Below, in pieces: positions 39,202-62,269 of a DNA stretch of 64,000 nt; position 1 is the stretch's first letter; every line of letters starts with the position of its first letter. The DNA lies in assembly GCA_963663165.1 (NCBI GenBank), contig OY760175.1, forward strand, positions 1,824,001-1,888,000, given 5' to 3'. Origin of the DNA: an uncultured Desulfospira sp. Its GTDB lineage: Bacteria > Desulfobacterota > Desulfobacteria > Desulfobacterales > Desulfobacteraceae. The notes under the pieces are model-generated. The model did no database searches and had not been told where the DNA came from. It saw only the letters and a program-made list of their open reading frames with translations. Made by a program: the position numbers and the translations under genes.

Positions 39202-39334
39202 CGACAACGGGGAGCTGAGGGGCCAGGCTTTTAAACCCCAAAAAACTCCGATAAAAAGTTTAATTTTCCTGAACCAGGGACTCCCGAAAAGGCCGCGCCA
39301 GTAAGCCTGGTCCCTCTCCGGCGTTTTGTTGGCC
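39202..39334 (-). other. attC site A
   Basis: R'' GGCCAAC directly after the vapC stop; inverted arms GAGAGGGACCAGGCTT/AAGCCTGGCCCCTC; R' GTTGTCG. Confidence 0.88.
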
Positions 39335-39720
39335 TAATTTTTGGAATAGACCGCTTTTAAATTTTCAATCATCGGGTAATGTTTGATATTTAGCGTTTTA
39401 AGCTGAGCATTTTTTGAATGACACGTTGCAGCAATGATGGCATCAGCCAATCCTACGCCATGAGATTTGCCGAAATCACGTTTATATAGTCCACCAATCT
39501 TAGCAATTTCAGAGGTAATTGGAATGACGTCAAAAAGGGAAACAAAATTATTCAAAATCGTTAATTCTTGTTTCCCCCTTACCCCTGCATAAAGTTCAGC
39601 GATCACTATCGTGGATAATATTATTTGAGATGCATTGTCATTTATAAAATCAACAGCTTGCTGATAGCCTCGTAAAAAATCAATAAGAACATCAGTATCA
39701 GGAAGGAATAATTGCGCCAT
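39334..39720 (-). CDS. vapC: PIN-domain toxin (VapC family)
   Basis: DTDVLID, AEL..G, LADAIIAAT, TLN.KHY. Confidence 0.9.
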   Translation of the reverse strand: MAQLFLPDTDVLIDFLRGYQQAVDFINDNASQIILSTIVIAELYAGVRGKQELTILNNFVSLFDVIPITSEIAKIGGLYKRDFGKSHGVGLADAIIAATCHSKNAQLKTLNIKHYPMIENLKAVYSKN

Positions 39721-39722
39721 TT

Positions 39723-39956
39723 TTATTCCCTGTCCCATTCAGAACGCATTGTTTTAAAATCGGGGATATCTGACCGATCTTTCCAGAGGCCAGCGGTTTC
39801 ACATAATATTTTTTTTCGTCTTTCCTGACTTGCCTGTTCAATTAAAATATCAATTGCTTCTCGGATCAGTTCGCTTTGTTTTTTCCCTTGGATTTCTGAA
39901 AGAATGGCCAATTCAGTTCGTTGCTGATCAGTCAAATATATTTGAGTTCGTATCAT
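39723..39956 (-). CDS. RHH/CopG antitoxin
   Basis: MIRTQIYL...SELIREAID; directly upstream of the PIN toxin. Confidence 0.85.
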   Translation of the reverse strand: MIRTQIYLTDQQRTELAILSEIQGKKQSELIREAIDILIEQASQERRKKILCETAGLWKDRSDIPDFKTMRSEWDRE

Positions 39957-40014
39957 TGTGAATCTCCCTTTTTGATGTATACATTATAGTTGTACATCAC
40001 GAGGGTTTTGTCAA

Positions 40015-40077
40015 GGCCAACGGTAAGCTCACCGGACCGGCGTTTTATGCCGGGTCCGGTGAAGCGTTTGGTTATAC
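40015..40077 (-). other. attC site B (short, 63 bp)
   Basis: GTATAAC-CAAAC-GCTTCACCGGACC...GGTCCGGTGAGC-TTACC-GTTGGCC; R' is complementary to the R'' of the vapBC cassette. Confidence 0.92.
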
Positions 40078-40082
40078 CAATT

Positions 40083-40907
40083 TTATGATTTCCCCGTTAT
40101 TGACTCACTGAAGTCTGTGATAAAATGACCAAATTCAATGCCATAAATTTTCTTAAAAATTTTATCATGGTCACTGATAGTTGTGAGTTCTTTCATATAT
40201 GATAAAAATTTTTCCTTTCCAAATTTTTCAATTAGATAATCAACTATGCACGCAAACTCGGAATACATGAATGTAATTCTGTACTGAACATCAAGCTTGA
40301 TCCGGTCCTCGTTCTTAGTCTTGAAATATTCAGGAGGCATAAAATTGCCTTTTTGAATATAATCATAGGTTTCCTTTTTTGAAGGATACCATGATGTTCC
40401 CATTTGATTGGCACTATAAACAGCGATCCCCTCAAGCAACCATTCCGGGTAATTATAAGCTCTTGAAATACCGGAATGCTGATGAAGCAAACAATGGGAT
40501 AACTCATGTGTAAGATAAATTTCTAATGAAATTTCGCCATTTTCAGCTTCTTTTAATGCCCATGGAGAAATAATTAAATCTCCATTATAAAAAGCACAAA
40601 ACCGCGCTTTTGATATTGAACGTTTATAGTAACTGTTTTTGTCCTTAAAAATGAATATTCTTGGTTTCTTTAAAAACTTCCATTCATGAAACTTTTCAAC
40701 GTTAGGGATTAAAGAATCAATTATTTTTAAATCAGGGCATTCTGCACCTTTTTGAACATAAACAATTGTGTTTGTTAATTCCTTTTTAGAAAACCCGATT
40801 ATGAGAGGGGAATAAGGGAATAGCTTACCAAATAGAAAACTATAGACAACTAGTCCCAAGATAAGAATGAAGCCAATTGCGATTGAATATTTCAGTTTAT
40901 TCTTCAT
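40083..40907 (-). CDS. Cassette-borne zinc metallopeptidase-like (peptidase MA-like) protein
   Basis: N-terminal TM, HELSH then P.WL.EG.A; low GC. Confidence 0.7.
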   Translation of the reverse strand: MKNKLKYSIAIGFILILGLVVYSFLFGKLFPYSPLIIGFSKKELTNTIVYVQKGAECPDLKIIDSLIPNVEKFHEWKFLKKPRIFIFKDKNSYYKRSISKARFCAFYNGDLIISPWALKEAENGEISLEIYLTHELSHCLLHQHSGISRAYNYPEWLLEGIAVYSANQMGTSWYPSKKETYDYIQKGNFMPPEYFKTKNEDRIKLDVQYRITFMYSEFACIVDYLIEKFGKEKFLSYMKELTTISDHDKIFKKIYGIEFGHFITDFSESITGKS

Positions 40908-40937
40908 TTCAAAAACATCAGTTTTTTATTCTGGTAT

Positions 40938-41472
40938 CTCGCGGTAGGAACGCCGGTTACCCGACGCCCCCCGCACAGACCCGGACGTGCGGTTTTCCCG
41001 CATCCGGTTCCTCGGTTATACTCGCTTTCGTGTAAGACATCCGTTTATGTAAACGCTCGATGTCGCCTGTTAACCACTCGCATCCTTGGTTTGGCAATAC
41101 CCAAAAGAGCCACTGCTCTGGTAAAGACTTCCCAGGTGAAGCTTTTCCGCTTCCCACCTCGACGATTCAACCACTTGAATGCACACTCTTCGGCCCAGCT
41201 GTAAAAATGCCATAATGCCGACAGGTTACCTGGTACATTATAATAGTTGTAATAGCCGCGCAACCGTCTATTCAACCCTTTTATAAAGGTGATTCCTTTT
41301 AAATGACGGTTATCCTTTATCCATTCCTTGATTCGCCGGCAGGCTCCTTGCAATTTCTTTGGCGCAGTCCGTTGTTTAACTTTCACGGTACCGGTTCTGT
41401 CTTTTTCCCAGAAGAGTTCAAAGCCTAAAAAGCTTATCCGTACTTTCATACCGGGATGGAAACGATTAAACC
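40938..41472 (-). mobile_element. 3' remnant of a second, unrelated group II intron (class E-like), truncated by IS66
   Basis: RT7/X-domain remnant (FLGF..., LRGYYNYY...WLNRR); DV GAACCGGATGCGGGAAAACCGCACGTCCGGGTC; DVI ending CTACCGCGAG. Confidence 0.85.
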
Positions 41473-41551
41473 GTGTCCCTTCGGTAAGCCTGCATGAATT
41501 AAGTTTTCGCAGCTGATATAACGGTCCCATCAACATTTTAAGGAAGGACCC

Positions 41552-41965
41552 ATGAATAAAACAAAGCTGACAGGCAAACAGTATTCAGCACTTGAAAAAG
41601 TGGCACAACAGTTTGCAGCCTGGAGAGAAACGCGGACAAAAATCGGATGTATTCCGGATTCATTATGGTCTGCGGCTGTAAATCTTTTTTATTCTTATAA
41701 CCTGAGTATAAACAAGATTGCCCGGACTTTAAGGCTCAATTATACAGACCTGAAATTACACATCACAGCAAGCCCGCCGGTTGCCATACAACCCATTGAG
41801 GATGAGCCAGCCACATTTGTTGAACTGGAACCGCCATTTGCCGCCACGGATTGCATCATAGAGATGGAAAAACCATCCGGAGTAAAGCTGCGCATGTGCT
41901 TCCGGGGGCGGGCAGATCCCGCGGCCATTGATCTTGGCAGATATTTTCTTGAGGGACTGCCATGA
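41552..41965 (+). CDS. IS66 TnpA-like accessory protein
   Basis: F..WR...IP..LW..AV.L...L.L.Y..LK, FVEL, IE...G..LR. Confidence 0.75.
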   Translation: MNKTKLTGKQYSALEKVAQQFAAWRETRTKIGCIPDSLWSAAVNLFYSYNLSINKIARTLRLNYTDLKLHITASPPVAIQPIEDEPATFVELEPPFAATDCIIEMEKPSGVKLRMCFRGRADPAAIDLGRYFLEGLP

Positions 41966-42315
41966 TCCAGATCACACCTCATATGAAGATCTTACTGGCT
42001 GTTGATCCGGTAGATTTCAGGAAAGGCATTGACGGCCTGGCCGGGTTATGCCGGAAGATACTCCATTCCGATCCTTTTTCCGGATACCTGTTTGTATTTA
42101 TCAACCGGAGACGAACAGCCATAAAGGTATTATGCTATGACTTTCAAGGTTTCTGGTTATGCCAGAAGCGGTTATCCCAAGGCCGTTTTAAATGGTGGCC
42201 GGTAAACGCAACCGGATGCAAAACCCTTGATGCGCATGAACTTCAAATGCTGCTATGGAACGGTGATCCGTTTAATACCAGGGCAGCCCCGGCATGGAAA
42301 AAGCTGTCTGCATAA
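41962..42315 (+). CDS. tnpB: IS66 accessory protein TnpB
   Basis: PVDFRKGIDGL, LFVF.NRRR..IK.L.YD.QGFWL..KRL..GRF.W. Confidence 0.92.
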   Translation: MIQITPHMKILLAVDPVDFRKGIDGLAGLCRKILHSDPFSGYLFVFINRRRTAIKVLCYDFQGFWLCQKRLSQGRFKWWPVNATGCKTLDAHELQMLLWNGDPFNTRAAPAWKKLSA

Positions 42316-42360
42316 TTTTTTTCGTACGTTCGAACCCAAAATCTATTATAAGACGTTGCC

Positions 42361-43257
42361 ATGACAGATGACATCGTACTTACATATAGAGGCAGGACGG
42401 CAACCCGTGATGATATTGCCTTCATCAACCGGTTAATAAAGGATAACCCCCAAGCCAGCCGTTTGGCATTGTCAAAAATGCTGTGCACGGAATGGAATTG
42501 GGTTCAGCCCAACGGTAATCTTCGTGACATGATTGCCAGAGGATACATGCTGGCACTTCACAGGCAGGGGCATATCACCCTTCCAGCCAGAAAGCAGACT
42601 CCCAATAATCCATTTTTGAACCGAAAAAAACCGGCAAAAATACAGATAGATCAAACCCGGGTGACGGCCGGTCTTAATGAGCTCACACCCCTTGATATTG
42701 AACTGGTTAAAAATACCCCCAATGAGGCATTGTTCAATAGCCTGATCGAGCACCATCATTATCTGGGATATTGCCATCCAGTTGGAGAGCAGCTCAAGTA
42801 CATGGTTTTTTATCAAAAAAGGCCTGTGGCATGTTTTTCATGGTCATCGGCACCACTGCATATTGGTGCCAGGGACCGGTACATCGGATGGGAGAAAAAA
42901 CACAGGGATCACAATCTTTGTTACATTGCATATAACAGCCGCTTTTTGATTTTACCTTGGTTCCGGGTGCCTCACCTGGCCTCCTGTCTTTTGGGTTACA
43001 TGGCCAGAAACCTGTCAAAAGACTGGGAGCGTATCTATTGCCATCCTGTTTATTACCTTGAGACATTCGTCGATACCGAATTATTTTCAGGAACCTGTTA
43101 CAAGGCCTCGAACTGGCAATATCTTGGAGAGACAACCGGGCGAGGCAAGCATGAACGCCGGCATATCAAGACCAGATCAATCAAAGCGGTCTGGGGATAT
43201 CCCTTGGTGAAAAATTTTAGAACCCTCATGACAAAGCTGCCCGATGAAATCATTTAG
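42361..43257 (+). CDS. DUF4338 (DruA-like) protein
   Basis: HHYLG, RD.YIGW, NSRFLILPW, LETFVD, GTCYKASNW..LG.T.GRG. Confidence 0.8.
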   Translation: MTDDIVLTYRGRTATRDDIAFINRLIKDNPQASRLALSKMLCTEWNWVQPNGNLRDMIARGYMLALHRQGHITLPARKQTPNNPFLNRKKPAKIQIDQTRVTAGLNELTPLDIELVKNTPNEALFNSLIEHHHYLGYCHPVGEQLKYMVFYQKRPVACFSWSSAPLHIGARDRYIGWEKKHRDHNLCYIAYNSRFLILPWFRVPHLASCLLGYMARNLSKDWERIYCHPVYYLETFVDTELFSGTCYKASNWQYLGETTGRGKHERRHIKTRSIKAVWGYPLVKNFRTLMTKLPDEII

Positions 43258-44791
43258 CCTGAAGGAGGAAGAGCTTGACGCGCTCATAAATCGAGTGGAG
43301 TCAGGCTGTCTTAAAGCGGGGGATGCCGACATTATCAAAGCCATGGTAGATGCTGTAAAATCTTTGAGTCAGGCAGTCAATGATAAGGCAACATCCATTA
43401 AAAAACTTTTAAAAATGATTTTCGGTTCCAAGACTGAGAAAAAGAAAAGCCCTTCTAAAAACAAAAAATCAGGTTCCACCACCCAAAAGGAAAAGAAGAA
43501 AGGCCATGGCAACCGTTGCGCCGATGAATTTACAGGTGCTGACAAGGTTGCTATTGCCCATGAAACCCTGTCTCATAAAGACCCGTGCCCTTTATGCCCA
43601 AATGGGATTCTTTACCTTCAGAAAAAACCGGGTCTTGTGATCCACTTTACAGGGCATGCACCGATCAATGCCACAATCTATGAAACTGAAAAACTTCGGT
43701 GTAATCTGTTCGGCGAAGTTTTTACTGCCCAGGCACCGGAAAACAAAACCGGCAGGCACTATGACCCAAGTGCCATGGCAATGATGGCCATTTTAAGATA
43801 TGGATGCGGATTACCCTGGAACCGTTTGGCAAATCTCCAGGAAAGTATGGGAGTCCCGCTTCCGGCTTCGACTCAGTGGGAGAAGACAGAAGCGGCAGCC
43901 GACCTCATTTATCCGGTTTTTAATGAACTCGTTTTCCAGGCAGCCCAGGGAGACACCCTTCATAACGATGACACCACCATGAAAATCCTTTCGTTGATGA
44001 AGGAGAATCAAGACAAAACAACAAATGAACGAACCGGGATGTTTACAACGGGCATTATCTCCCAAATCGGTGATGACCGGAAAATAGCCCTGTTTTACAC
44101 AGGCCGGAACCATGCCGGTGAAAACATCGCCCGGCTCTACGGAATGCGGGACAAAGACTGTCCCACGCCGGTTCAGATGTGTGATGCTTTGTCGCGCAAC
44201 TTTTCTGATGAATTTAAAAGGATTCTTTGTAACTGTCTCACCCATGCCCGCCGAAATTTTGTGGATGTAGAAGAGCATTTCCCAGATGAATGCGGGCATG
44301 TCATAGATGTCCTGGCTGATGTTTATCATAATGATGCCCATACAAAAAAACAGGCGATGACACCGGAACAACGGTTGGCTTATCATAAGGAACACAGCAG
44401 ACCTTTGATGGCAGCTCTTCGATCCTGGCTGGACAAACAACTTAATGAACATCTGGCGGAACCGAATTCTGGCCTGGGCAAAGCCATCGCCTATATGATT
44501 AAACATTGGCCTGAGTTAACCCGTTTTTTGAAAACGCCTGGTGCCCCCCTGGATAACAACATTTGCGAACGTAGCCTGAAACAGAGTATCCTGCATCGAA
44601 AAAACGCACTATTTTATAAAACGGAACATGGTGCCTTTGTTGGTGATATGTTCATGAGCCTGATTCAGACCTGCAATCTGATGAAGGTCAATCCATTTGA
44701 TTATCTGATCACATTGCTGAATAACGCAACTGAGCTGAGAACCGATCCTTCCCGGTGGATGCCTTGGAATTATAAAACCGTATCAGCGTAA
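43244..44791 (+). CDS. IS66 transposase TnpC
   Basis: HNDDT, MCDAL, NCL.HARR.F, PLDNN.CER.LK....RKN. Confidence 0.9.
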   Translation: MKSFSLKEEELDALINRVESGCLKAGDADIIKAMVDAVKSLSQAVNDKATSIKKLLKMIFGSKTEKKKSPSKNKKSGSTTQKEKKKGHGNRCADEFTGADKVAIAHETLSHKDPCPLCPNGILYLQKKPGLVIHFTGHAPINATIYETEKLRCNLFGEVFTAQAPENKTGRHYDPSAMAMMAILRYGCGLPWNRLANLQESMGVPLPASTQWEKTEAAADLIYPVFNELVFQAAQGDTLHNDDTTMKILSLMKENQDKTTNERTGMFTTGIISQIGDDRKIALFYTGRNHAGENIARLYGMRDKDCPTPVQMCDALSRNFSDEFKRILCNCLTHARRNFVDVEEHFPDECGHVIDVLADVYHNDAHTKKQAMTPEQRLAYHKEHSRPLMAALRSWLDKQLNEHLAEPNSGLGKAIAYMIKHWPELTRFLKTPGAPLDNNICERSLKQSILHRKNALFYKTEHGAFVGDMFMSLIQTCNLMKVNPFDYLITLLNNATELRTDPSRWMPWNYKTVSA

Positions 44792-44886
44792 TGCAATCCC
44801 AGCATGCCCGTCCCCCTTTTTTTTTGTGACGAATTCAACTGGTTTATCCCCGAAAAAAAGCTTGTGCATGTTTACCGAAGGGACAC

Positions 44887-44951
44887 AAAATAACTAATAA
44901 AATAGTTGGGGTTAATTGAATTGGCGTTTTTAATATTGTCCAAATGTTCAT
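44887..44951 (-). pseudogene. 5' stub of a cassette gene truncated by IS66
   Basis: ATG a few nt after R' GTTCGGA; frame MNIWTILKTPIQ... runs into the IS66 IR. Confidence 0.55.
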
Positions 44952-44959
44952 AATATTTT

Positions 44960-45090
44960 TCCGAACGGGGAGCTGATGGGGCAGGCTTTTGAACCCCAAA
45001 ACTCTCGATAAAAAGTTGAATTTTCCTGAACCAGGGACTCCCGAAAAGGCCGCGCAGTAAGCCTGGTCCCTCTCCACCGTTTTGTTCGGC
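44960..45090 (-). other. attC site C (intron-free)
   Basis: R'' GCCGAAC ... AGCTCCCC-GTTCGGA; close homologue of attC A and E. Confidence 0.88.
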
Positions 45091-47527: not shown

Positions 47528-47960
47528 ATCTGTAATATATCAACCTTCACTTTATTTGTCATGGTCTATTTCTTTAGAGATCGGGTAGCCGGGGGTAGTT
47601 GTCTACCCCAGGCCCCCTCAGAACCGTACGTGACAGTTTCCCGTCATACGGCTCAAGCATTTCTAAGGCTAAGCCTGGCGGGGCCGCCCGGTTGTTTAAG
47701 CAATAATGAAATTTACAGTTATTCCATAGCATGCTTCTTTGAGCATCCGCCAGGGAAGTACAGTTCTTTTTTCCCTGTTCAAAAAACCAGTGCTGACGCA
47801 TGAAAATTTATAGTCAATGATATCAATGACGCAGCTCGATATCCAAAATTATTTTGTCGCAAAATTTAAATAGACAAAATTTCGGCCTTTTGATAATGTA
47901 GCATAGGGTACGAATGAGCGCCCCCCCAATCGAGACACTACATTTGAAGAGGAGGATGTC

Positions 47961-48836
47961 GTGATTGTCCAATGTGGCCGGAAAATTAAAGACGAAGAGC
48001 TTATACAGATTTGCGAGACAGTAGAGACCTTTTCGAATTTGAGTCAGACTGAACTGGCTCATACAATATGCGAACATTTGGGCTGGTATACCGCTTCTGG
48101 TAGGAACAAGGTGGATGCCTGCCGGAAATTGCTTCTGCGACTGGAGTCCCAAGGTCTCATACGGTTGCCTGAAAAAGAGAAACTCGGTCCCATAAAGGGC
48201 TCTCAACAGAAACTGCCGGTAGCGGACGACAGGACCCAGCCCCAAGATAAGGTAGCGGGCACGCTTTCGGATATCGGGCCGATCGTTGTCAGGGTCGCAC
48301 AAGACACGGAAGAACGCTCACTGGTTAATGAATACCTGCACCGTTACCATTATCTTGGCTACAAGCGGCCGTTCGGATGTCATCTGCGTTATTTGATACA
48401 AGCTCAAGAGCGCATATTGGGATGTATGCTGTTCTCAGGGGCGGCCAAGGCGCTGACCCCGAGGGATCGATGGATCGGCTGGAGCACCAACGAACGCTTA
48501 AGAAACTTGGGATTTGTTGTAAACAATGGACGCTTCCTGATTTTTCCGTGGGTCAAGGTCCGGTATCTGGCAAGTCACGTATTGGGTAAAATTGTCAGAG
48601 ATCTGGTGCAAGACTGGGAGCGGAGCTGGGGGTATCGGCCGGCTTTGCTGGAGACCTTTGTCGACCCACAACACTTCGATGGGACGTGCTATCGGGCGGC
48701 CAATTTTAGACACCTTGGCATGACCAGCGGAAAGGGGCTTGTCCGGCAGGGTAGAAGTTACAGGACCAGTCCCAAAAAAATCTTCGTTTATCCGCTGGTG
48801 AATAATTTCCGTCAGGTTTTGAGGCAGATCGGATGA
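47961..48836 (+). CDS. DUF4338 (DruA-like) protein
   Basis: YHYLG, RDRWIGW, NNGRFLI.PW, LETFVD, GTCYRAANF. Confidence 0.8.
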   Translation: MIVQCGRKIKDEELIQICETVETFSNLSQTELAHTICEHLGWYTASGRNKVDACRKLLLRLESQGLIRLPEKEKLGPIKGSQQKLPVADDRTQPQDKVAGTLSDIGPIVVRVAQDTEERSLVNEYLHRYHYLGYKRPFGCHLRYLIQAQERILGCMLFSGAAKALTPRDRWIGWSTNERLRNLGFVVNNGRFLIFPWVKVRYLASHVLGKIVRDLVQDWERSWGYRPALLETFVDPQHFDGTCYRAANFRHLGMTSGKGLVRQGRSYRTSPKKIFVYPLVNNFRQVLRQIG

Positions 48837-50851: not shown

Positions 50852-50860
50852 AACATCTTA

Positions 50861-51265: not shown

Positions 51266-51267
51266 AG

Positions 51268-51822
51268 ATGAAACGGCTGCTTCAACTGGAGACCCTTATT
51301 GCCCGTAATCAGGAGAGTTTCTATAAGATCGGTCAGGCGTTAAAAGAAATCCGTGACAGCCGCCTGTACAAACTGGCCCTGTTTGAGACATTTGAAGCAT
51401 ATACCAGGGAACGGTGGGATATGGGCAAGTCCCATGCATACCGCCTGATCAAATCTTATGAAGTGATCTATAATTTGTCCCCAATTGGGGACAAAACACC
51501 TGCCAATGAATCCCAGGTCCGGCCTCTTGCTCAATTGGACCCCCTGGACCAGCGCAACACCTGGAAGGCAATCATAGACAACGGTATTGAGTTAACCGCA
51601 CGGAACATCAAAAAATTTGTAGAGGCCCAAAAAATACCCCCGGAGAACAAACCGGATTTGGCGGAACGGATTTCGGCTGAATACATGGCAGCCGTACATG
51701 CAATGATTGAACAGGTGCGGGTGGCCCAGCATGATCATTGGCAGCAAACGTCCCGGCAGGCTGCATTGTTGTGGCACAGGGTGATCCGCGAAAAAATTTT
51801 ATCAAAAGGGGCAAGACAATGA
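51268..51822 (+). CDS. Hypothetical DNA-binding protein (DUF3102-like)
   Basis: IG.AL.EIRD.RLY.....TFE.Y...RW......AYRLI, NE.Q.RPL. Confidence 0.6.
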   Translation: MKRLLQLETLIARNQESFYKIGQALKEIRDSRLYKLALFETFEAYTRERWDMGKSHAYRLIKSYEVIYNLSPIGDKTPANESQVRPLAQLDPLDQRNTWKAIIDNGIELTARNIKKFVEAQKIPPENKPDLAERISAEYMAAVHAMIEQVRVAQHDHWQQTSRQAALLWHRVIREKILSKGARQ

Positions 51823-53486
51823 AGAACCTGAGCCTTGATGACCGTTTTTATTTGCTGCTCCATAAAAAAATCATGAATAAAACCGGATCAGCCAAAAGAA
51901 GGTCCAAAAAATATTACAAAGACCAGTACAGGAAAACCGGCATTATCCCGACGCCCCTTCTACTGGTTGAAAAAGGGATTATGGACGGCCGCAAATGCAG
52001 CGGCCGGCCCCGGTCCATAGATGAACAAACCAAAAGGCGGTTTATCGAAATGGTCAAGGCCTCCTGTGACCCGTCATCCCAGGGGTTTATTTTTATTACC
52101 CGAAAAGCCAGAACCATTAAAAATTACCACTATTGGCTTGAAAGAGAATTGGGAAAAACCATCAGCCTTCCGGCACTCAGGCGATGTGCCCAAAGGGAAG
52201 GCCTTAAATTTTACCTGGAAAAAGAAGATTTTGAAGAAAATGCCCCGGTGAAAAACGCATTCAAGCCTGTTCCGGTGTTTGGCCTGATACAGGTAGACGG
52301 TTGCAACTTTCGATATTTAAAAATCAAAAATGAGGCTGGCCACTGGCAAAAACCCCAAGTCATTGAAACGTTTGATACCGGTTCCCGGTACATGTTTGAA
52401 CTTGATGCCTATTTCGATGAAAGCAGCTTAAGCTCAGTGGATTTGTTTAACCGGTTTTTGCTTTCCACCCCATTTCCCCAGAAGAAAGTCCGGTTCAGGC
52501 CGGATAACGCCACAGGATTTGTAAATCTCAAAAGAGTCATCAACGCCTTGAATATAAAACATTCCGTTCCCGGAGGATTTTATCTGGCGCCGGATTTTTC
52601 AAGGGTAAGTGCCCCCAGGGACAAGGCCCATCTTGAGTCCTCCCATCGCAGTCTTCATAATTTTGAAATCCGAATCATCAAGGCGTTTGAAGACAGGATT
52701 GTAAAGACCGTTCCAGGGGTTATCTTCAATAATAAGAAAAAAGAAAAAATCACTGTGACACTCCTTGATATTACACTCCGGGATTTAAGACACAGCCCCC
52801 TGATAAAAGAATACCGCCACGAACATAACCACACCAAACATTATTTTAGCGAAAATGGAAAGATCAGTGCATGGGTTCCGGCACAAAAGCTGGAAGAATT
52901 TTTATCAAGGCAAGCCGATATCCTTACCTTTTCACCGGATGAGGTGCAGGAATATATGAAGTATGGCTACAGGAAAATAAAAGCCACTGTATCTAACAAA
53001 AGAACCATTCGCCATGACAACCGGATCTATTGTGTAACCAGTGGTACAGACCGGTTCAGCAGGCATAAAAGTACACCGGTGCAAATATCAGTATATAAGG
53101 GCAAGCTGTTTATTTTTGAACGGGGGGAAGACGGCATACTATTGGGCGAAGCCCTTGCCACAAAGCCGTTTGACAAACCACCTGACCCAAAATCTGTACC
53201 AGTGGCCCCGGATGAACTCGACATGATGATCATTTTTCTGGAAAAGCACAACATGGCCGTCGACCGGCGAGTCTTAATTGAAGCTTATCATAGCGGCCTC
53301 ACTCTGGCCCGGGCTCAACAAGTGCTTCATCATAATCAATCCAGGTACAAGAATTATATGAAAAAGATGCGGCAACCTGAAACACAGAAAAAGCAGGCGG
53401 TATTCAATGCCTTTATGCTTGACTGCCGGAAATTGATCAATACAAACCATGTGGCCACGTATGCATCCTGCGGAGATTTAACATGA
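51819..53486 (+). CDS. Integrase-core (DDE) transposase
   Basis: SGRPRS HTH, QVDG, DTGSR, PDN..GF, P.DKA.LE. Confidence 0.75.
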   Translation: MKNLSLDDRFYLLLHKKIMNKTGSAKRRSKKYYKDQYRKTGIIPTPLLLVEKGIMDGRKCSGRPRSIDEQTKRRFIEMVKASCDPSSQGFIFITRKARTIKNYHYWLERELGKTISLPALRRCAQREGLKFYLEKEDFEENAPVKNAFKPVPVFGLIQVDGCNFRYLKIKNEAGHWQKPQVIETFDTGSRYMFELDAYFDESSLSSVDLFNRFLLSTPFPQKKVRFRPDNATGFVNLKRVINALNIKHSVPGGFYLAPDFSRVSAPRDKAHLESSHRSLHNFEIRIIKAFEDRIVKTVPGVIFNNKKKEKITVTLLDITLRDLRHSPLIKEYRHEHNHTKHYFSENGKISAWVPAQKLEEFLSRQADILTFSPDEVQEYMKYGYRKIKATVSNKRTIRHDNRIYCVTSGTDRFSRHKSTPVQISVYKGKLFIFERGEDGILLGEALATKPFDKPPDPKSVPVAPDELDMMIIFLEKHNMAVDRRVLIEAYHSGLTLARAQQVLHHNQSRYKNYMKKMRQPETQKKQAVFNAFMLDCRKLINTNHVATYASCGDLT

Positions 53487-54145
53487 AGGCAGATTTTATC
53501 AGTGACAAACGAAGGGTATCATACCTGAGCGCCACTTATAGCCGGATCTACCGGGGCCGGAGCGTACTCATTGAGGGAGATTTTGGAGCGGGAAAAACCA
53601 GGTTTTTAAAACTGCTTCGTCCCAAAAAACTTCATGCCGTATGGGTAGAGTCCCTGTTCAACATACACGAAACCCTGGCATCCATACTCAAAGAATTGAA
53701 CTATGACACCACAGCCACATATCGCAGAACTCCCCAGTACCTGAAAATGATCTGCAACCTGTCCAACTGCTTTATTATTATTGATGAGGCCAATGATCTG
53801 GATACCAGGGTCTGGCCATATCTTAAGCGGATCATTGATGCCGGTGTTCCTATTGTTTTTGCAGGGCTTCCAAAGGTCAGGACCTATTTGATTCGCAATC
53901 ACCCTGATATCCTCAGCCGGTTGAAAACCCTGATTTTATATCCCATAGAGGTTGAGGGCTTTATCGAACAATATAAAGATATCCAGCAGGAAGCCGTTGA
54001 GCAAATTTATATGGCGGTCAAAGGCGACATGCGTAAATTTAAAGAAATCTGTACTGACTGCCGGGACAAGGCAAAGGAATTGAACCACCAATTTGTTGAC
54101 ATTAATCTTGCCCTGGAGTTTATATCTGACCTTCCTCCCCAGTAA
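53483..54145 (+). CDS. AAA ATPase (TnsC/MuB/ExeA-like)
   Basis: GDFGAGKT, IIIDEA, VFAG.P, SR, GDMR. Confidence 0.85.
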   Translation: MKADFISDKRRVSYLSATYSRIYRGRSVLIEGDFGAGKTRFLKLLRPKKLHAVWVESLFNIHETLASILKELNYDTTATYRRTPQYLKMICNLSNCFIIIDEANDLDTRVWPYLKRIIDAGVPIVFAGLPKVRTYLIRNHPDILSRLKTLILYPIEVEGFIEQYKDIQQEAVEQIYMAVKGDMRKFKEICTDCRDKAKELNHQFVDINLALEFISDLPPQ

Positions 54146-55647
54146 TCCCTGAAAAGTAGATCCGTAAAAACAGGCCACTTCTGATTTAACCGGAAGATGG
54201 CCTGTTTATATTTTGACCTTAATTGATTAACGCAATTTTTCGCCTGGATATACCTGTGAAAATCAGGGAACCACAGATTGTTTTTGAATCTTTTTTGAAC
54301 CGTTACATTAATTTGCAACTTTCAATATTTTTGACTGCCAACCTAACCTACTAAATTTATATGAAAAACCATTTCTTTTTTGAAATAATGAACGAAAAAA
54401 AATCCGTTACATTATTTGAATGTGAGCAATTGGAACGTCATGAAAGGGTATCATGCCTTGATGCGCCTGGGCCATATGTTTAACGTTTTGGCCAGATACT
54501 CGCAGCGGCTTGCCAGGATTATTGAAGATACCGGCGCACGGGGCCTGATTCGTTTAGTCCGGGATACCATGTCCGGCCCGTGGCTGGATTACATGTGGCT
54601 GGAAGATCGTCTGTCCACTCCCTTTCAACTCCGATTAGTATGACGGCAACGACGGACGGGTAATCGAAAACACTCTCCCAAGCAGAGAGGTGGGAACGCT
54701 ATGTTCGGACCGAAGGACCGTCTTTCGTTTCGGCCATAGTCAGTGTCTGAAGGACTGCCTTTTTGAATTAAAAAAGGCTGGATCTCCCCCCAAAGGGAGT
54801 GGTTAGATCGACTAAAGCCAACCTTTTTTTATTCATGCGTCAGCACTGTCAAAAAACATACGTCCTTTGAAAATGCCTCTGGATGTGCATGCCGTGTGCT
54901 TCTCTAACAACCTTTGCGATACTCATCTACAGTCTTTTAACAGTATAAACTGCTGATGGGCGCACCAGCTATTGCCGTCATTTGCTTTCCCATCCTCAAA
55001 GATTCTCCAGACTCTCTCGCAAAGAAACACCTGCCCGGGTGTGCCTGTAGCCACACCCGCCGGACGTCAGCTCCCTTTCGGGCCGGGTGATGTTGGGATG
55101 TTCTCCTCAACCCGTATCCACCTTATTACAAGATTGGCCTTCGCTTTTTCCTGCATCTTACTCCCGCACCCCCATCTGTGTGCCTTACGGTTTCACCTGC
55201 CGAATGTCCCCGGCGAGGATACGGGGTTTCCACGTTCCACATTATTGCCAATTAATGGATGACTTAGGCCTGCCCACTGCACCGGCGGCGCAACATCTCC
55301 GTGCAGGCAGTTGAGAAACCTGCATCCTGACCGCTAACCTTTTGGTCCAAGCTTATCAGCCTCTTTAGCTTGTTCTCCCTGACGACGCTTGAAGAACATT
55401 CAATTAATTTGACCATATCATCCAAACCCTTGCCCTCACCCGGAATGAGGCTTCCAGGAGGGTATCCGCCTCACGGCTTCCACCCCTTCCGCAATTGCGG
55501 AATTCGGTACGTTGTCGGTTGGGCTTCACACCGTTGCCGGATGCACCGGGAACCGCATGCCACCTAGGGTACCGGCAGGAGAATGCCCGGGTTTGGTCAG
55601 GACCGACAGGCCCGCCAAACAGCCAATAATGCGACCTCGTGTCGCAC

Positions 55648-55774
55648 CCGAACGGGGAGCTCAGCCGACCGGGGCATACAGCCGAGCAGATTGTCGAAGC
55701 CAAGTTTTTTCGAAAACCAAGGACTTTCGAAAAGCCGCTATCCCCCCCGGGTCGGCTGCAGCGTTTTGTTCTCT
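55648..55774 (-). other. attC site D
   Basis: R'' AGAGAAC-AAAAC-GCTGCAGCCGACC...GGTCGGCTGAGC-TCCCC-GTTCGG|intron. Confidence 0.88.
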
Positions 55775-56105: not shown

Positions 56106-56117
56106 AATCGGTTCCTC

Positions 56118-56393: not shown

Positions 56394-56843
56394 AGTTAAA
56401 ACTATAACGCCATGTGTTAAATGTCAAGCGTGTGTTTTTAAGAAATCGGGTAGCCGGGGGTAGTTATCTACCCCAGGCCCCCTCAGAACCGTACGTGACA
56501 GTTTCCCGTCATACGGCTCAAGCATTTCTAAGGCTAAGCCTTGCGGGGCCGCCCGGTTGTTTGAGCAATAATGAAATTTACAGTCATTTCATAGCATGCG
56601 TCCTTGGGCATCGGCCAGGAAGTACTGTTTTTTTCTATAACCGCAAATGACAGTTGGATTTTTTCAACCAACTGATTTTTAATTCAATTAATACAACTTG
56701 TTTCAATTTGCAAAGTATATGTTTTAGTCGTTGAATCGAAAAACTCTAAGATTCTGGGCGAAATGGATTATTTTTCCTGTTATTGCTTCGTAGTATATGA
56801 TATTATTTGGCACAAATATCATATACTACGAAGAGAGGTTGTC

Positions 56844-57509
56844 ATGCCTATTATCGACGTTCAAAAAATTGAATCGGCCAGATCAACGCTTAAAAAACAA
56901 AAAATTTTTACCCTCAAAAAGCTTGTTTCAATTCTGGATTGTTCCTCCAGAACTGCCCAAACAAAACTTAAACAGTGGAAGACCTACACAAGTTACAATC
57001 AAAACGGGAAGTATTATACTTTGCCTGAAATCCCTCAATTTGACGTTTATGGTATATGGCAATTTAAAAATGCCGCGTTCTCTAAGTATGGTAATCTAAA
57101 AAAAACCATTATCCATTTAGTGAACTCCTCATCTGAAGGGCTTACCGGCAGACAACTTGGTGAACTTCTTGGGTTATCACCACAATCCTTTGTGCATCAT
57201 TTCCGTAGTTGTCCGGGTATCTGTCGAGAAAAGCACGCTGGTGTCTATGTCTACTTCTCTGACAACATTTCAATATTTAAAAATCAAGTAAAACAAAGGA
57301 GTTCCCTTGTCCTCCGTCAAGCGGCTATTTCCATTTCTGACCAGGAAGCAGTCATGATTCTGGTTGCTATTATCAGGCATCATGGCATATCCGCAGAAGA
57401 CATTTTGGGCTTGCCGGAGATCAAAAAGAGCAAACTAAAGCCGGCTAATATCCAAGGATTTATGGAGTCTCATGAGTTGTTAAAAAAAATTCCGGATTCC
57501 AAGCATTAA
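56844..57509 (+). CDS. IS ORF A (winged-helix-like)
   Basis: RBS GAGG before ATG 56844; TSYN.NG.YYTL; ends just past an A8 run. Confidence 0.7.
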   Translation: MPIIDVQKIESARSTLKKQKIFTLKKLVSILDCSSRTAQTKLKQWKTYTSYNQNGKYYTLPEIPQFDVYGIWQFKNAAFSKYGNLKKTIIHLVNSSSEGLTGRQLGELLGLSPQSFVHHFRSCPGICREKHAGVYVYFSDNISIFKNQVKQRSSLVLRQAAISISDQEAVMILVAIIRHHGISAEDILGLPEIKKSKLKPANIQGFMESHELLKKIPDSKH

Positions 57510-59314
57510 AACTGCTCAAAAGCTTTATCTCCAAGCTGACTGGGTCCGTCCAAACTAGTGTGCTATTCTCAGCAAAGCCGACTTTGCATTTTTACCCGGA
57601 AATTTTAAAATGCCCTGATTGTAATTCTACACTCCATGTTCAGAAAACCGATACGAAGACCAGGGTCACCATGGACATCGGTGCCTATTTTGCCAAGGAA
57701 ACGGTATTGTATTGCCCCCACGGTCACGGAACGTTCAGGTCCGAACAGCTTCGAAACCTTGTACCCAGGGGCGGCACTTTCGGGTTTGATGTCATTGTGG
57801 AGGTGGGGTTTGCACTTTTTGTCCGTTGTCTCAGCAATCAGGAGGTCATGGCTGAATTGGCGATCAAGAATGTATTCATCTCTGAACGGGAGATCAGCTT
57901 TCTGGGCCGTAAGTTTATCATTTATCTTGCCCTGGCTCACCGACAGAGCCGGCCGGCTCTGCGAAAGTTCTTCACAAGCAGGGGAGGATATATCCTTCAT
58001 GTGGATGGAACTTGTGAAGATGATAGCCCCAATCTATTTTGCGGCCTTGACGGACTCTCAGAACTGGTCCTTGATACGGTAAAAATTTCTTCAGAGAAAA
58101 AAGATGAGCTCATCCCATTTTTCCGTAGCATCAAAGAGCAGTATGGTGAACCAAGGGCACTCGTACACGATATGGGTAAAGGGATTGTCAGTGCGGTGGA
58201 GGAAGTTTTCCCAGGGACACCCGATTTTATATGTCATTTTCATTTCCTGCGTGACATTGGCAAAGACCTGCTAGCTGATGAATATAGTTTTTTGCAGAAA
58301 CGGTTAAAGAAACTCAAGGTTCGACCTGCATTGAGGAGGCAGGCCAAGTATCTTGAGAAAAAAATTGATCCGGTCGGCAAGGATATTGATGAAATTATTG
58401 AGAGCCTTCAAAGTGGGAATTGGCAGGCAACTGATTTCGATCATATCCCCACGATTATGGCATATGCTTTAATCCATTGGATATTTGACTATCCAAATCA
58501 ATCCAACGGATATGGTTTCCCTTTTGACCGTCCATACCTTGATTTTTATCGACGTCTTCAAGATGTTCTCCGGTTGCTGGAACAAATCATGACCGTGAAC
58601 CTCAGTGAGGCAGCAAATTTAAACAGAGCCTTTTCCCAATTATATAAAGTAGTCATAAAAGTCGTAGAAGATAAGCGTCTTAATGATCTTGCCAAAAACA
58701 TGGAATCAAAGGCAGCCGTATTTGACAAGCTGCGTTGTGCTATGCGAATTGCCCTTCCTGATGGCAAAAATGGCATTAATGATAATGGCGATTCCATGAA
58801 CATGAAAAGTATTGAAGAAAAAGTGACTGAATTCAGGAACTGGCTCCTTGAGAATAAACACAGACAAAAAACCTATGCTAACATGGTGGCACAGATTGAC
58901 AAATACTGGGAAAAGCTCTTTGCCGACCCGATACCAGTCGTCACATCGGACGGAATTTTTACGGTCCAACCACAGAGGACGAATAACCTTCTGGAGAGAT
59001 TTTTCCGGGATGAAAAACGACGAGGTCGGAAAAAAACCGGCATGGGATCGCTGAACAAAATGCTAAAAGCGGTCCTTGCCGACACGCCGCTGGTGCAAAA
59101 TTTAAAAAACGACAAGTATATGGAGATTATTCTCAATGGATGTTCCAACCTGGCAGAAAGGTTTTCACAAATTGATGCTGATCTGGTACAAAAAGAGCTG
59201 ACCAAGGCGGCTGAAAACAATTGCAAAATATTCCCGGGGATCAAAAAAATGATAAGGGATACTGAATTAACGGTAAAAATCTCAACGCTGTTTTGTCCAG
59301 CAGATGCAAAATAA
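57482..59314 (+). CDS. IS ORF B transposase (probably fused to ORF A by a -1 frameshift)
   Basis: LHVDGT, VHDMG, CHFH (CxxH), RTNN.LE; the frame is open upstream through the A8 run at 57482-57489. Confidence 0.75.
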   Translation, partial: KKNSGFQALKLLKSFISKLTGSVQTSVLFSAKPTLHFYPEILKCPDCNSTLHVQKTDTKTRVTMDIGAYFAKETVLYCPHGHGTFRSEQLRNLVPRGGTFGFDVIVEVGFALFVRCLSNQEVMAELAIKNVFISEREISFLGRKFIIYLALAHRQSRPALRKFFTSRGGYILHVDGTCEDDSPNLFCGLDGLSELVLDTVKISSEKKDELIPFFRSIKEQYGEPRALVHDMGKGIVSAVEEVFPGTPDFICHFHFLRDIGKDLLADEYSFLQKRLKKLKVRPALRRQAKYLEKKIDPVGKDIDEIIESLQSGNWQATDFDHIPTIMAYALIHWIFDYPNQSNGYGFPFDRPYLDFYRRLQDVLRLLEQIMTVNLSEAANLNRAFSQLYKVVIKVVEDKRLNDLAKNMESKAAVFDKLRCAMRIALPDGKNGINDNGDSMNMKSIEEKVTEFRNWLLENKHRQKTYANMVAQIDKYWEKLFADPIPVVTSDGIFTVQPQRTNNLLERFFRDEKRRGRKKTGMGSLNKMLKAVLADTPLVQNLKNDKYMEIILNGCSNLAERFSQIDADLVQKELTKAAENNCKIFPGIKKMIRDTELTVKISTLFCPADAK

Positions 59315-60151
59315 ATACCAACCGTCATTTGCGGTCATAGGTTTTTTTTCCTGGTCAAAGACATACGTCCTTTGAAAATGCCTTGGATGTAAATGCCGTA
59401 CGCTCCTTTAACAACCTTTGCGATACGCATCTACAGTCTTTTAGCAGCATAAAGCTGCTGATGGGCGCACCAGCTAATGCCGTCATTTGCTTTCCCATCT
59501 TAAAAGATTCTCTAAACTCTCTCGCAAAGAAACACCTGCCCGGGTGTGTCTGTAGTCACACCCACCGGACGTCAGCTTCCTTTCGGACCGGGTAATATCG
59601 GGGTTTTCTCCTCAACCCGTATCCACCTCATTACGAGATGGCCTTCGCTTTTTTCCTGCATCTTACGCCCGCACCCCCATCAGTGTGCCTTGCGGTTTCA
59701 CCTGCCGAATGTTCCCGGCGAAGATACGGGGTTTCCACGTTCCACATTATTGCCGATTAATGGATGACTTAGGCCTGCCCACTGCACCGGCGGCGCAACA
59801 TCTCCGTGCAGGCAGTTCCGACACCTGCATCCTGACCGCTCACCTTTTGGTCCAAGCTTACCAGCCTCTTTAGCTTGTTCTCCCTGACGACGCTTAAGGA
59901 ACATTCAATTAATTTGACCATATCATCCAAACCCTCGCCCTCACCCGGATTGAGGCTTCCAGGAGGGTATCCGCCTCACGGCTTCCACCCCTTCCGCAAC
60001 TGCGGAATTCGGTACTTTGTCGGTTGGGCTTCACACCGTTGCCGGATGCACCGACCACCGCATGCCACCTAGGGTACCGGCAGGAGAATGCCGGGTTTGG
60101 TCAGGACCGACAGGCCTGCCAAACAGTCAATAATGCGACCTCGTGTCGCAC

Positions 60152-60280
60152 CACAACGGGGAGCTGAGGGGCCAGGCTTTTAAACCCAAAAAGCGCCAAT
60201 AAAAGTTTAAATTTCCCTGAACCAGGCACTCCCAAAAGGCCGCTCTGTAAGCCTGGTAACTCTCCAACGTTTTGTTCAAG
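60152..60280 (-). other. attC site E
   Basis: R'' CTTGAAC ... CAGCTCCCC-GTTGTG|intron; homologue of attC A and C. Confidence 0.88.
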
Positions 60281-60487
60281 TAAGCCGCTCCGCGGCAGGC
60301 GGCAGAATGAAAGCTTGACCCATAAGCACGGTTGCCATACTATTTGTGTATGAATCAATTCGCAATTTCTCTAACATTCAAAGCGTTTTCATTTTATCGA
60401 AAACCACAAGATATTGTAGTTTTGAACCCTTCCCCTTAACCTACATATTGTGTTTTATCACTCTTTTTCCAACCGCGGCTTCTTGAA
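60281..60487 (-). other. ORF-less gene cassette
   Basis: Starts GTTCAAG and ends CTTGAAC (perfect complement); no credible ORF. Confidence 0.75.
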
Positions 60488-60548
60488 CTAAAGGATTAGT
60501 ACCGAGCCTCGTTCCTCGGCACGGTTACTAATCCTTTATTTGTTCTCC
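60482..60548 (-). other. attC site F (short, intron-free)
   Basis: GGAGAAC-AAA-TAAAGGATTAGTAACCG...CGGTACTAATCCTTTA-GTTCAAG. Confidence 0.75.
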
Positions 60549-60831
60549 TTTTATTTTGATTTAAGATAACTTTTAAATCCCTATAATAATTCTCATGCGG
60601 TCCTATCATGATTAATTCAAGGTCATCGCCTACAAAACGATAAGAAAGCAGGTACTGAATAGTTTGTATTTTGAATTTATGAACAAAAACACCTCTTAAA
60701 TCTCCCTTTTTTTCTGTACCAATAGTTGGATTTTCAGCAATGTTTTTTACTTCGCTATCAAGTATCTCTTTTTCCTGCTTGGAAAATTTTTTAACCTTTC
60801 GTTCAAAAGATCGGGACTGAAAAATTTTCAT
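60496..60831 (-). CDS. RelE/ParE-family toxin
   Basis: F.R.VKK, NP.IG..K.GDL..V.V.KF, GPHENYYRDLK; reads into attC F. Confidence 0.85.
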   Translation of the reverse strand: MKIFQSRSFERKVKKFSKQEKEILDSEVKNIAENPTIGTEKKGDLRGVFVHKFKIQTIQYLLSYRFVGDDLELIMIGPHENYYRDLKVILNQNKRRTNKGLVTVPRNEARY

Positions 60832-60837
60832 TTTTTG

Positions 60838-61056
60838 TTACTCAAATTTATATTCGGTTGTTTCTCCGTAGTCCAATTCAGCTATACCAATGAGAATTTC
60901 TTTTATAAGATCATAGGTTAAATCGGGATTTTCTTCAGCACATTTTCCAATCCGAGCCCAATGTTCAATTTGCCCAGTTAAAGATCGCTTATCGATTTTG
61001 CTGAATATTTTAGCTTCCCTAACTAATTCGTCAGTGATTCTTACTGCAGTTGTCAT
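60838..61056 (-). CDS. ParD-like antitoxin
   Basis: RS..GQIEHWARIG..AEENPDL. Confidence 0.85.
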   Translation of the reverse strand: MTTAVRITDELVREAKIFSKIDKRSLTGQIEHWARIGKCAEENPDLTYDLIKEILIGIAELDYGETTEYKFE

Positions 61057-61150
61057 GATATAATCCCCCATTTATTTTTCTTTTAAATATAATGGTTCGA
61101 ATTGCACTTTGCAACTTAAAATTGCACTTTGCGACATTGTGGGTTTTGAG

Positions 61151-62142
61151 ATCGGGTAGCCGGGGGTAGTTATCTACCCCAGGCCCCCTCAGAACCGTAC
61201 GTGACAGTTTCCCGTCATACGGCTCAAGCATTTCTAAGGCTAAGCCTTGCGGGGCCGCCCGGTTGTTTGAGCAATAATGAAATTTACAGTCATTTCATAG
61301 CATGCGTCCTTGGGCATCGGCCAGGAAGTACTGTTTTTTTTCCTGGTCAAAGACATACGTCCTTTGAAAATGCCTTGGATGTAAATGCCGTACGCTCCTT
61401 TAACAACCTTTGCGATACGCATCTACAGTCTTTTAGCAGCATAAAGCTGCTGATGGGCGCACCAGCTAATGCCGTCATTTGCTTTCCCATCTTAAAAGAT
61501 TCTCTAAACTCTCTCGCAAAGAAACACCTGCCCGGGTGTGTCTGTAGTCACACCCACCGGACGTCAGCTTCCTTTCGGACCGGGTAATATCGGGGTTTTC
61601 TCCTCAACCCGTATCCACCTCATTACGAGATGGCCTTCGCTTTTTTCCTGCATCTTACGCCCGCACCCCCATCAGTGTGCCTTGCGGTTTCACCTGCCGA
61701 ATGTTCCCGGCGAAGATACGGGGTTTCCACGTTCCACATTATTGCCGATTAATGGATGACTTAGGCCTGCCCACTGCACCGGCGGCGCAACATCTCCGTG
61801 CAGGCAGTTCCGACACCTGCATCCTGACCGCTCACCTTTTGGTCCAAGCTTACCAGCCTCTTTAGCTTGTTCTCCCTGACGACGCTTAAGGAACATTCAA
61901 TTAATTTGACCATATCATCCAAACCCTCGCCCTCACCCGGATTGAGGCTTCCAGGAGGGTATCCGCCTCACGGCTTCCACCCCTTCCGCAACTGCGGAAT
62001 TCGGTACTTTGTCGGTTGGGCTTCACACCGTTGCCGGATGCACCGACCACCGCATGCCACCTGGGTACCGGCAGGAGAATGCCGGGTTTGGTCAGGACCG
62101 ACAGGCCTGCCAAACAGCCAATAATGCGACCTCGTGTCGCAC
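61151..62142 (-). mobile_element. Group II intron copy 4, ORF-less, uninterrupted (992 nt)
   Basis: GTGCG at 62142, DV/DVI intact, CTACCCGAT at 61151; only decayed traces of the RT ORF. Confidence 0.92.
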
Positions 62143-62269
62143 CGAGAACGGGGAGCTGAGCCGACCGGGGCATACAGCCGAGCAGGTTGTCGAAGCCAAG
62201 TTTTTTCGAAAACCAGGAGCTTCCGAAAAGCCGCGAGCCCCCCGGGTCGGCTGCAGCGTTTTTTTGTGC
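62143..62269 (-). other. attC site G (R'' mutated to GCACAAA)
   Basis: Homologue of attC D; ...GCTCCCC-GTTCTCG|intron. Confidence 0.82.

Follow-up and report, generated by a model that had tools for sequence, protein, structure and literature searches.

Cassette array and intron copies

We analysed a window of 64,000 nucleotides from the genome of an uncultured Desulfospira sp. (contig OY760175.1, positions 1,824,001 to 1,888,000), in which copies of a group II intron occupy some attC sites of a gene cassette array and leave others empty. From 37.3 to 63.0 kb, Rfam searches gave four matches to group II D1-D4 and six to domain V/VI, every one of them on the minus strand. The small minus-strand open reading frames (ORFs) between the introns are typical cassette cargo (PIN, HigB with a helix-turn-helix (HTH) protein, ParE-like and HicA/HicB), toxin-antitoxin cassettes included. 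The large ORFs on the plus strand encode transposases and accompanying proteins, inserted in two introns or between cassettes. Directly 3' of each small cassette ORF there is an imperfect AAC...GTT hairpin of 50-130 nt. Such inverted repeats, bounded by AAC and GTT and following cassette ORFs, were recognised by a hairpin scan and by a central motif, which is present genome-wide in 45 copies in three arrays and at solo sites. The repeats are the attC sites of a chromosomal cassette array.

A preliminary description of this stretch proposed that intron occupancy at seven sites (A to G) follows a sequence rule, in which occupied sites have CTCCCC before the GTT of the R' core and a pyrimidine (Y) as the first base of the 3' exon (+1). 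Every string that it quoted for the seven sites is present in its place on the minus strand. The sites are listed with the method that detected them; the hairpin scan of positions 36000-66000 gave no further convincing attC between sites A and G.

39202..39332, minus: attC site A, occupied; R'' AAC 39325-39323, R' GTT 39208-39206; 5' exon CAGCTCCCCGTTGTCG, then intron GTGCG (intron start 39201); 3' exon C after 37332 (hairpin scan, central-motif census)
40015..40076, minus: attC site B, short type, empty; GAGCTTACC-GTTGGC, +1 C; junction string GAGCTTACCGTTGGCC at 40028->40019 (hairpin scan)
44958..45088, minus: attC site C, empty; CTCCCC-GTTCGG, +1 A; string CAGCTCCCCGTTCGG, then A, at 44972->44958 (hairpin scan, central-motif census)
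55648..55772, minus: attC site D, occupied; hairpin z = -3.3; 5' exon GAGCTCCCCGTTCGG (intron start 55647); 3' exon C after 47580 (hairpin scan, central-motif census)
60152..60271, minus: attC site E, occupied; 5' exon CAGCTCCCCGTTGTG (intron start 60151); 3' exon T after 56445 (hairpin scan, central-motif census)
60482..60548, minus: attC site F, short type, empty, directly after a ParE-like gene; CCTTTA-GTTCAA, +1 G; string CCTTTAGTTCAAG at 60494->60486 (hairpin scan)
62143..62260, minus: attC site G, occupied; 5' exon CAGCTCCCCGTTCTCG (intron start 62142); 3' exon C after 61151 (hairpin scan, central-motif census)

The intron copies in the window are as follows.

37332..39201, minus: copy A, 1870 nt, with a frameshifted intron-encoded protein (IEP, a reverse transcriptase); Rfam RF02012 and RF00029
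47580..55647, minus: copy D, G-like, split by a ~7-kb insertion (about 47770-54835)
56445..60151, minus: copy E, G-like, carrying a ~2.7-kb insertion sequence (IS; 56635-59340)
61151..62142, minus: copy G, a 992-nt ORF-less derivative
62896..64000, minus: 3' part of copy 5, with its 5' end outside the window at window-equivalent 64829; 3' exon C at 62895

The intron begins with GTGCGAC and ends with ...CTACCCGAT. Over the whole genome the family has 15 3' junctions, 15 5' junctions that are intact and one that is truncated, and a full-length copy elsewhere in the genome (5573101-5575411) encodes an intact IEP of 528 aa. The insertion in copy D encodes a DruA-like ORF (47961-48836), a DDE_Tnp_1-associated transposase, a CHC2 zinc-finger protein, an AAA protein and ORFs without assignment; that in copy E encodes an HTH protein (56763-57509) and a Mutator-like transposase (57560-59314). 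When copy E was compared with the ORF-less copy G, its insertion was placed where the two parts of G overlap by 8 nt, and this overlap in coordinates points to a target duplication. Head-to-tail introns were observed at genome positions 4188777-4188780 (locus L010), where one 3' end abuts a copy without its first three bases, and likewise at locus L013. At about 388063-388700 of the genome, the first ~90 nt of the intron, inserted at an attC with CTTATC, run into a CRISPR-like array with ~37-nt repeats.

The genome contains one true integron integrase (TIGR02249, 456 bits against a cut-off of 265; genome 4194663-4195604, plus strand), and next to it lies the array at 4.18-4.19 Mb. The DNA to the left of this IntI carries cassette ORFs together with attC sites and introns that belong to the families already described. 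All of these are on the minus strand, so the introns lie in the cassette-coding (top) strand. No IntI belonging to the window's own array was found within the window or among the TIGR02249 hits of the genome, and we therefore regard this array as an attC cluster of the CALIN (cluster of attC sites lacking integron integrases) type.

Intron class and guide elements

The 528-aa IEP contains the domains RVT_N, RVT_1 and GIIM, and the domain search returned no endonuclease (En) domain hit. Its best solved relative is 6ME0_C (E 1.4e-165), which we take to be the group IIB ribonucleoprotein of Thermosynechococcus TeI4h; the GsI-IIC reverse transcriptase matched with E 6.9e-33, and IIA and IIC reverse transcriptases in general at only E ~1e-33 to 1e-36. 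By this similarity the IEP probably belongs with the reverse transcriptases of IIB introns; the tree described below holds related IEPs only. On the RNA side, the copies have the conserved 5' (GUGYG) and 3' (AY) ends and a domain V with the catalytic triad, and they score 69-72 bits with RF00029 and 86-95 bits with RF02012, as expected for group IIB. They also have a 6-bp pairing of exon-binding site 1 (EBS1) with intron-binding site 1 (IBS1), a separate EBS2-IBS2 pairing (both by covariation in 41 introns) and an EBS3 located apart from EBS1 that pairs with the first 3'-exon base (covariation in 31 introns). The inserted elements are copies of one group IIB intron family (IIB1/chloroplast-like type). 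A IIC classification was also considered and was rejected on the IEP similarity and the presence of a covarying EBS2. The traits of the known IIC-attC introns, namely a class C IEP and RNA without EBS2 and bottom-strand insertion antisense to the cassettes, are absent; the introns are co-oriented with the cassettes and divergent from intI. A replication-strand bias, as expected for an En-minus intron, was looked for as well. Cumulative GC skew placed the origin at about 3.95 Mb and the terminus at about 0.7 Mb, and no uniform bias was observed, the window array being co-directional with the fork and the other two arrays head-on.

When domain I was aligned for the 15 copies of this genome, the sole hypervariable stretch was EBS1, a loop GGU(U/G)U-NNN-AAC-UGCC at nt ~332-337 in which a variable triplet (CUC, CCU, CGG or CCG) precedes AAC. 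EBS2 is an invariant GGGAG (around intron nt 268-272) with conserved flanks, ~60 nt upstream of EBS1. In the window the guide elements have the following positions.

Copy A, minus: EBS2 GGGAG 38934-38930; EBS1 CTCAAC 38870-38865; EBS3 G 38832
Copy D, minus: EBS2 55379-55375; EBS1 CTCAAC 55315-55310; EBS3 G 55277
Copy E, minus: EBS2 59884-59880; EBS1 CGGAAC 59820-59815; EBS3 G 59782
Copy G, minus: EBS2 61876-61872; EBS1 CGGAAC 61812-61807; EBS3 G 61774

Covariation was assessed with 79 loci from other genomes that encode related IEPs (49-70 % identity). The domain I alignment held 43 intron rows with a defined 5' junction, the reference included; two head-to-tail L013 copies were dropped, and EBS1 and EBS2 were tested on the remaining 41 rows (the reference and 40 introns of other genomes). 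EBS1 matched the last six bases of its own exon at 5.39/6 positions on average, compared with 4.13 ± 0.10 for shuffled partners, and the EBS2 window matched its own exon positions -12..-8 at 3.95/5, compared with 3.26 ± 0.09. In both tests 0/2000 shuffles reached the observed value.

Minimum-free-energy folding of domain I placed EBS1 in a hairpin loop within an architecture that was not canonical for IIB, so EBS3 was located by covariation instead. For the 31 introns whose 3' end was defined, each column of domain I was scored against the base that opens the 3' exon. The best column, reference nt 368, agreed in 68 % of the introns by Watson-Crick pairing and in 77 % when wobble was allowed (next column 50 %, chance 25 %). 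It lies ~30 nt 3' of EBS1 in the context CCGG-UGCA-[G]-AGGGC. The base is G in 4/4 window copies, as had been predicted from the seven sites, and in all but one of the copies of the genome that reach this position; the exception is a diverged copy at 903 kb with a changed context (TTAA for AGA) and +1 T. At the sequence level, covariation among related introns thus confirms EBS2, EBS1 and EBS3, and the IIB-type recognition with three separate elements that was proposed earlier is borne out.

The covariation of EBS2 with exon positions -12..-8 also bears on a different reading, in which recognition is mainly structural as in IIC introns, the upstream hairpin being read and the complementarity of CTCCC and GGGAG being incidental. 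Every attC does have a hairpin ending just 5' of the insertion site, mismatches in IBS2 are tolerated, and the copy at 903578 follows a simple terminator-like hairpin without an IBS2 match. However, besides the EBS2 result, the RNA and, by its similarity, the IEP are of IIB and not IIC type, 51 of 77 related IEPs come from introns without AAC/GTT targets or attC context, and a copy in another genome (G013) has no evident hairpin-family site. We therefore consider mainly structural recognition unlikely and prefer recognition by base pairing.

Occupancy of attC sites across the genome

The hairpin scan has a sizeable background (16 hits scoring at least 30 per 160 kb of non-array DNA, compared with 49 in arrays). 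For this reason the conserved central motif, which does not include the IBS region, served as the anchor of the genome-wide census. It covers the ~115-120-nt attC class only. Of its 45 hits at E < 0.01, the one at 5592557 was dropped due to an unrecognisable 3' arm; a hit at 4133802 (E 0.01, no GTT) and a non-attC hit at E 0.02 were also excluded. The census thus comprises 44 attC sites, 13 occupied and 31 empty, which were compared using one-sided Fisher tests.

The insertion point lies in the R' core of attC, GTTNNN|Y. GTT is found 3-4 nt before the intron at 14/15 intact 5' junctions (GTC at the remaining one), and all 15 3' junctions of the genome have C (9) or T (6) at +1. When +1 Y was compared with the 31 empty sites, of which 22 have it, the frequency was 10/10 at occupied census sites with a known 3' exon (p = 0.058) and 15/15 over all 3' junctions (p = 0.018). 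A G at the last position before the insertion point (-1) was present in 11/13 occupied and 16/31 empty sites (p = 0.04), and CTCCC in 11/13 and 19/31 (p = 0.12). When all three features were combined, with +1 counted as a pass where it was not known, 10/13 occupied and 8/31 empty sites complied (p = 0.0024). The best natural control for IBS3 is the CTCCCC-GTTAGG trio: with +1 G this sequence is empty twice (1899289 and 1917889), and with +1 C it is occupied (5575504).

Introns that are at least 92 % identical were found in four other genomes and provide eight 5' and six 3' junctions. All six 3' junctions start with C or T, and CTCCC is present at four of the eight occupied 5' junctions. The observations that the preliminary description had named as speaking against its rule turned out differently: occupied sites without CTCCC do occur, as in half of these near relatives, a +1 purine was seen at 0/21 junctions, and EBS3 is G.

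Several observations weigh against the targeting rule. The CTCCC enrichment is not significant singly, and the sites of one genome are not fully independent. Eight fully compliant census sites are empty, six of them being CTCCCC-GTTGTG|C, and the hairpin scan adds a ninth at 1898591, which belongs to a different attC type. Conversely, two occupied sites have CTTATC (genome 387970 and 5543455), one has CTCCCT-GTTGGC (5566613), i.e. CTCCC without the -1 G, and two copies lie outside attC without an IBS2 match (903578, after the terminator-like hairpin, and 2945506). In the near relatives, the four other occupied sites are CTACCC, CTATCC, CTGCCC and one non-attC site. Moreover, +1 Y is also the attC consensus, present in 71 % of the empty sites, and the EBS1 of each copy fits its own site at only 4-5/6 positions, as would follow from tolerance of mismatches or from recombination between copies.

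The -1 G must also be read with caution. An extra G between IBS1 and GUGCG (GTTNNN+G after CCCC) is present in 5/15 copies of the genome (window 39202, site A, and 62143, site G; genome 4182871, 5543363 and 903577) and in one copy of the congener G001 (L103). The GTT:AAC register is kept only if the last G of this seven-base junction lies outside IBS1. The occupied G001 site is GTTCTT-G-[intron]-TTTTGAATGAAACG; apart from the intron and that G it is identical to a site that is empty in the present genome, and from this comparison of alleles the extra G was probably brought in with the intron. If it is not counted as exon, the -1 G is no longer enriched (8/13 compared with 16/31, p = 0.39), a further point against the rule, and the three-part rule gives 7/13 and 8/31 (p = 0.076). 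Under the same reading, CTCCC together with +1 Y is enriched (10/12 occupied and 11/31 empty sites, p = 0.006). We concluded that the targeting rule is a real statistical bias which is neither sufficient nor strictly necessary, and that +1 Y and GTT are its firm parts, the +1 base being the firmest single element. The occupancy rule of the preliminary description therefore holds as a bias (10/13 compared with 8/31), not as a clean split, as it leaks in both directions.

The bias could also arise with no selectivity of the intron, if CTCCCC-GTT...Y were simply the attC consensus of the host and units of intron plus attC were spread by cassette duplication or recombination. The high frequencies of CTCCC (19/31) and +1 Y (22/31) in empty sites are in agreement with this, as is the general attC R' core consensus, GTTRRRY. 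In addition, the orthologue of the ParE cassette in the congener G001 (L115 / L120, G001:C1:5088220) has an intron 3' end (CTCAAAA...) immediately before its start, so that intron and cassette could be passed on or mobilised jointly; a search of the 4.7 kb upstream of it gave no intron 5' end. However, all 14 3' exons tested are unique within the genome, which indicates separate insertion events, and the 5' attC subtypes differ. EBS1, EBS2 and EBS3 covary with the exons over 31-41 introns, insertions outside attC still show GTT and +1 T, and the combined features are enriched in occupied sites (p = 0.002). An absence of selectivity is thus very improbable, and selective targeting is retained. 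Empty counterparts of occupied cassettes were not available for comparison: each 3' exon matches only itself in the genome, without empty paralogues, and a pre-insertion allele sought in congeners was not obtained, the flank of site A at the array end being conserved in G001 only from nt 83 onward.

In the light of the census, the seven window sites alone prove little. The perfect split of four occupied and three empty sites is 1 of 35 possible labellings, and given the genome-wide pass rates its probability is ~0.14, so the set is too small to serve as the internal control that it had been taken for. The rule is consistent with the emptiness of site C, which has +1 A, and of site F, which lacks an IBS2 match and has -1 A and +1 G. 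The emptiness of site B had been ascribed to its lack of CTCCC. This explanation fails, as sites without CTCCC are occupied elsewhere, and the rule does not account for site B: its CTTAC is no worse than IBS2 variants in use at other sites, where GTTGGC and +1 C are likewise used.

We also considered whether site C could be a false empty site created by an abutting IS. This was rejected, since 71 nt of non-IS sequence separate the attC from the end of an IS66-family element at 44886, and site C is truly empty. The element (41473-44886) has 22-nt inverted repeats and an extra DruA-like ORF (42361-43257) between TnpB_IS66 and a DDE transposase. Its 8-bp flanks do not match, so that a rearrangement lies further downstream, and a partial second copy is located at genome 3259356-3260756. 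The element in the window truncates a second, different group II intron, the 3' part of which lies at 40938-41472 on the minus strand (domain V 41 bits; GIIM ORF 41045-41536) and whose family is found again at genome 1889656-1889795.

Targeting model, related introns and known attC introns

We consider it highly probable that this IIB intron targets the R' core of attC by a three-part EBS/IBS code that biases occupancy without fully deciding it. In this model, the CTCCC in the 3' arm of the attC stem would be bound by EBS2 GGGAG; a single base between IBS2 and IBS1 would be left out of the pairing; EBS1 5'-CNNAAC would pair with the R' core GTTNNG, its invariant AAC reading the invariant GTT; and the G of EBS3 would pair with the first 3'-exon base, either C or, by wobble, T. 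The 5' arm of attC carries ...AAC-GG(T)GGAG, the same as CNNAAC and GGGAG of the intron. As the recognised GTTNNN|Y is the attC R' core, the guide elements appear to imitate attC's own 5' arm (R'' ...YYYAAC, then GG(T)GGAG), and the intron RNA may compete with or replace this arm in the hairpin. The IntI crossover point is G|TT, and insertion would occur on the top strand, 5 nt 3' of it. Formally, the downstream cassette would then start with the intron, which agrees with the position of the G001 ParE cassette, and the intron could be spliced out of cassette transcripts. With the pairing elements, their covariation with the targets, and the strand and position of insertion observed as described, we infer that a site is permissible or not according to how well it pairs, +1 Y and GTT seeming near-obligatory and mismatch or absence of IBS2 being tolerated. 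Which permissible sites are filled may depend on history and chance.

Related IEPs (77) were also used for a quick maximum-likelihood tree with midpoint rooting, in which introns were labelled when they had an AAC-bearing EBS1 and/or a junction GTT. All 18 labelled introns were located in one group of 26 rows (SH-aLRT, Shimodaira-Hasegawa-like approximate likelihood ratio test, 98), and 0/51 other rows were labelled. Of the eight unlabelled rows in this group, five have AAC in the EBS1 loop (their 5' exons are unavailable) and three long-branch rows do not. Within the group, the insertion register slides along R' (CCCGTT|, CCGTTN|, CGTTNN|, GTTNNN|). At least five relatives lie after strong AAC...GTT hairpins (score at least 34) and two more after weaker ones; these hairpin-associated relatives come from Verrucomicrobiota, Chlorobiota and several Thermodesulfobacteriota. 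Depending on the root, the introns of the window belong to a multi-phylum group whose EBS1 carries AAC, and this group of 26 rows can be called a clade only under the midpoint root.

Whether this amounts to a multi-phylum IIB clade specialised on the sense-strand R' core, with EBS3, EBS1 and EBS2 mimicking the R'' arm, moving together with cassettes, diversifying its EBS1 and forming a second attC-homing lineage, we regard as evenly balanced. If so, IntI could move intron and cassette as one unit, with the intron landing 5 nt inside the cassette, and the hypervariable EBS1 triplet would be under diversifying pressure to track the variable RRR of R'. The attC-homing introns known so far are essentially of class IIC, read hairpins, are antisense and block cassette transcription; the lineage suggested here would be independently evolved and mechanistically different. 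Its IIB intron would read attC purely by three-part base pairing and in sense orientation, so that splicing could leave cassette transcripts intact and the intron could move along with cassettes. As the code is explicit (GGGAG / CNNAAC / G) and dozens of natural targets and one intact IEP are available, the targeting model is directly testable. It is also relevant to the part that introns, IS elements and integrons play in shaping large cassette arrays.

The present introns resemble the TeI3/TeI4 introns of Thermosynechococcus elongatus (IIB1; Mohr et al. 2010, PMC2882425) in several traits mentioned in the parts of that paper drawn on here: proliferation within the genome, ORF-less derivatives of ~1 kb, families differing in EBS, insertions of introns in introns and a 5' U variant. 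The TeI3/TeI4 targets are not attC, and the TeI4h IEP is described there with an En domain, whereas none was detected here.

With the IIC-attC introns (e.g. S.ma.I2) the introns described here share mobility, specialisation on attC, insertion just 3' of a hairpin and a GTT core. IIC-attC introns belong to class C and have an IBS1 of 3-4 bp and no EBS2. In the published accounts used for this comparison, their insertion point is TTGT/T in R'' of the bottom strand, and they run antisense to the cassettes (PMC3001079); they are also found in arrays without an integrase and can use terminator-like hairpins (PMC3001079, PMC7923331). In contrast, the present introns are of type IIB and insert in the top strand at R' (GTTNNN|Y), in sense orientation, with a 6-bp EBS1, a 5-bp EBS2 and an EBS3.

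A literature search on IIB introns in integrons turned up one report only (Sonbol and Siam 2021, PMC7923331). It describes UHB.I2, one full IIB1/CL1 (chloroplast-like 1) intron after an attC in a soda-lake metagenome, in cassette orientation, with an En-minus IEP and 5'-UUGCG...GU-3' ends; in the portion of the report considered here, its EBS3 was not placeable and its authors saw no conserved target (PMC7923331). Compared by description only, UHB.I2 is like the introns of this study in being IIB, directly downstream of attC, in cassette orientation and En-minus, and its ends recur in relatives found here (e.g. L019, L027 and L042). As far as that portion extends, UHB.I2 is a single case, whereas for the present family there are many copies, a defined EBS1/2/3 code, empty sites counted in a census and a group of related introns.

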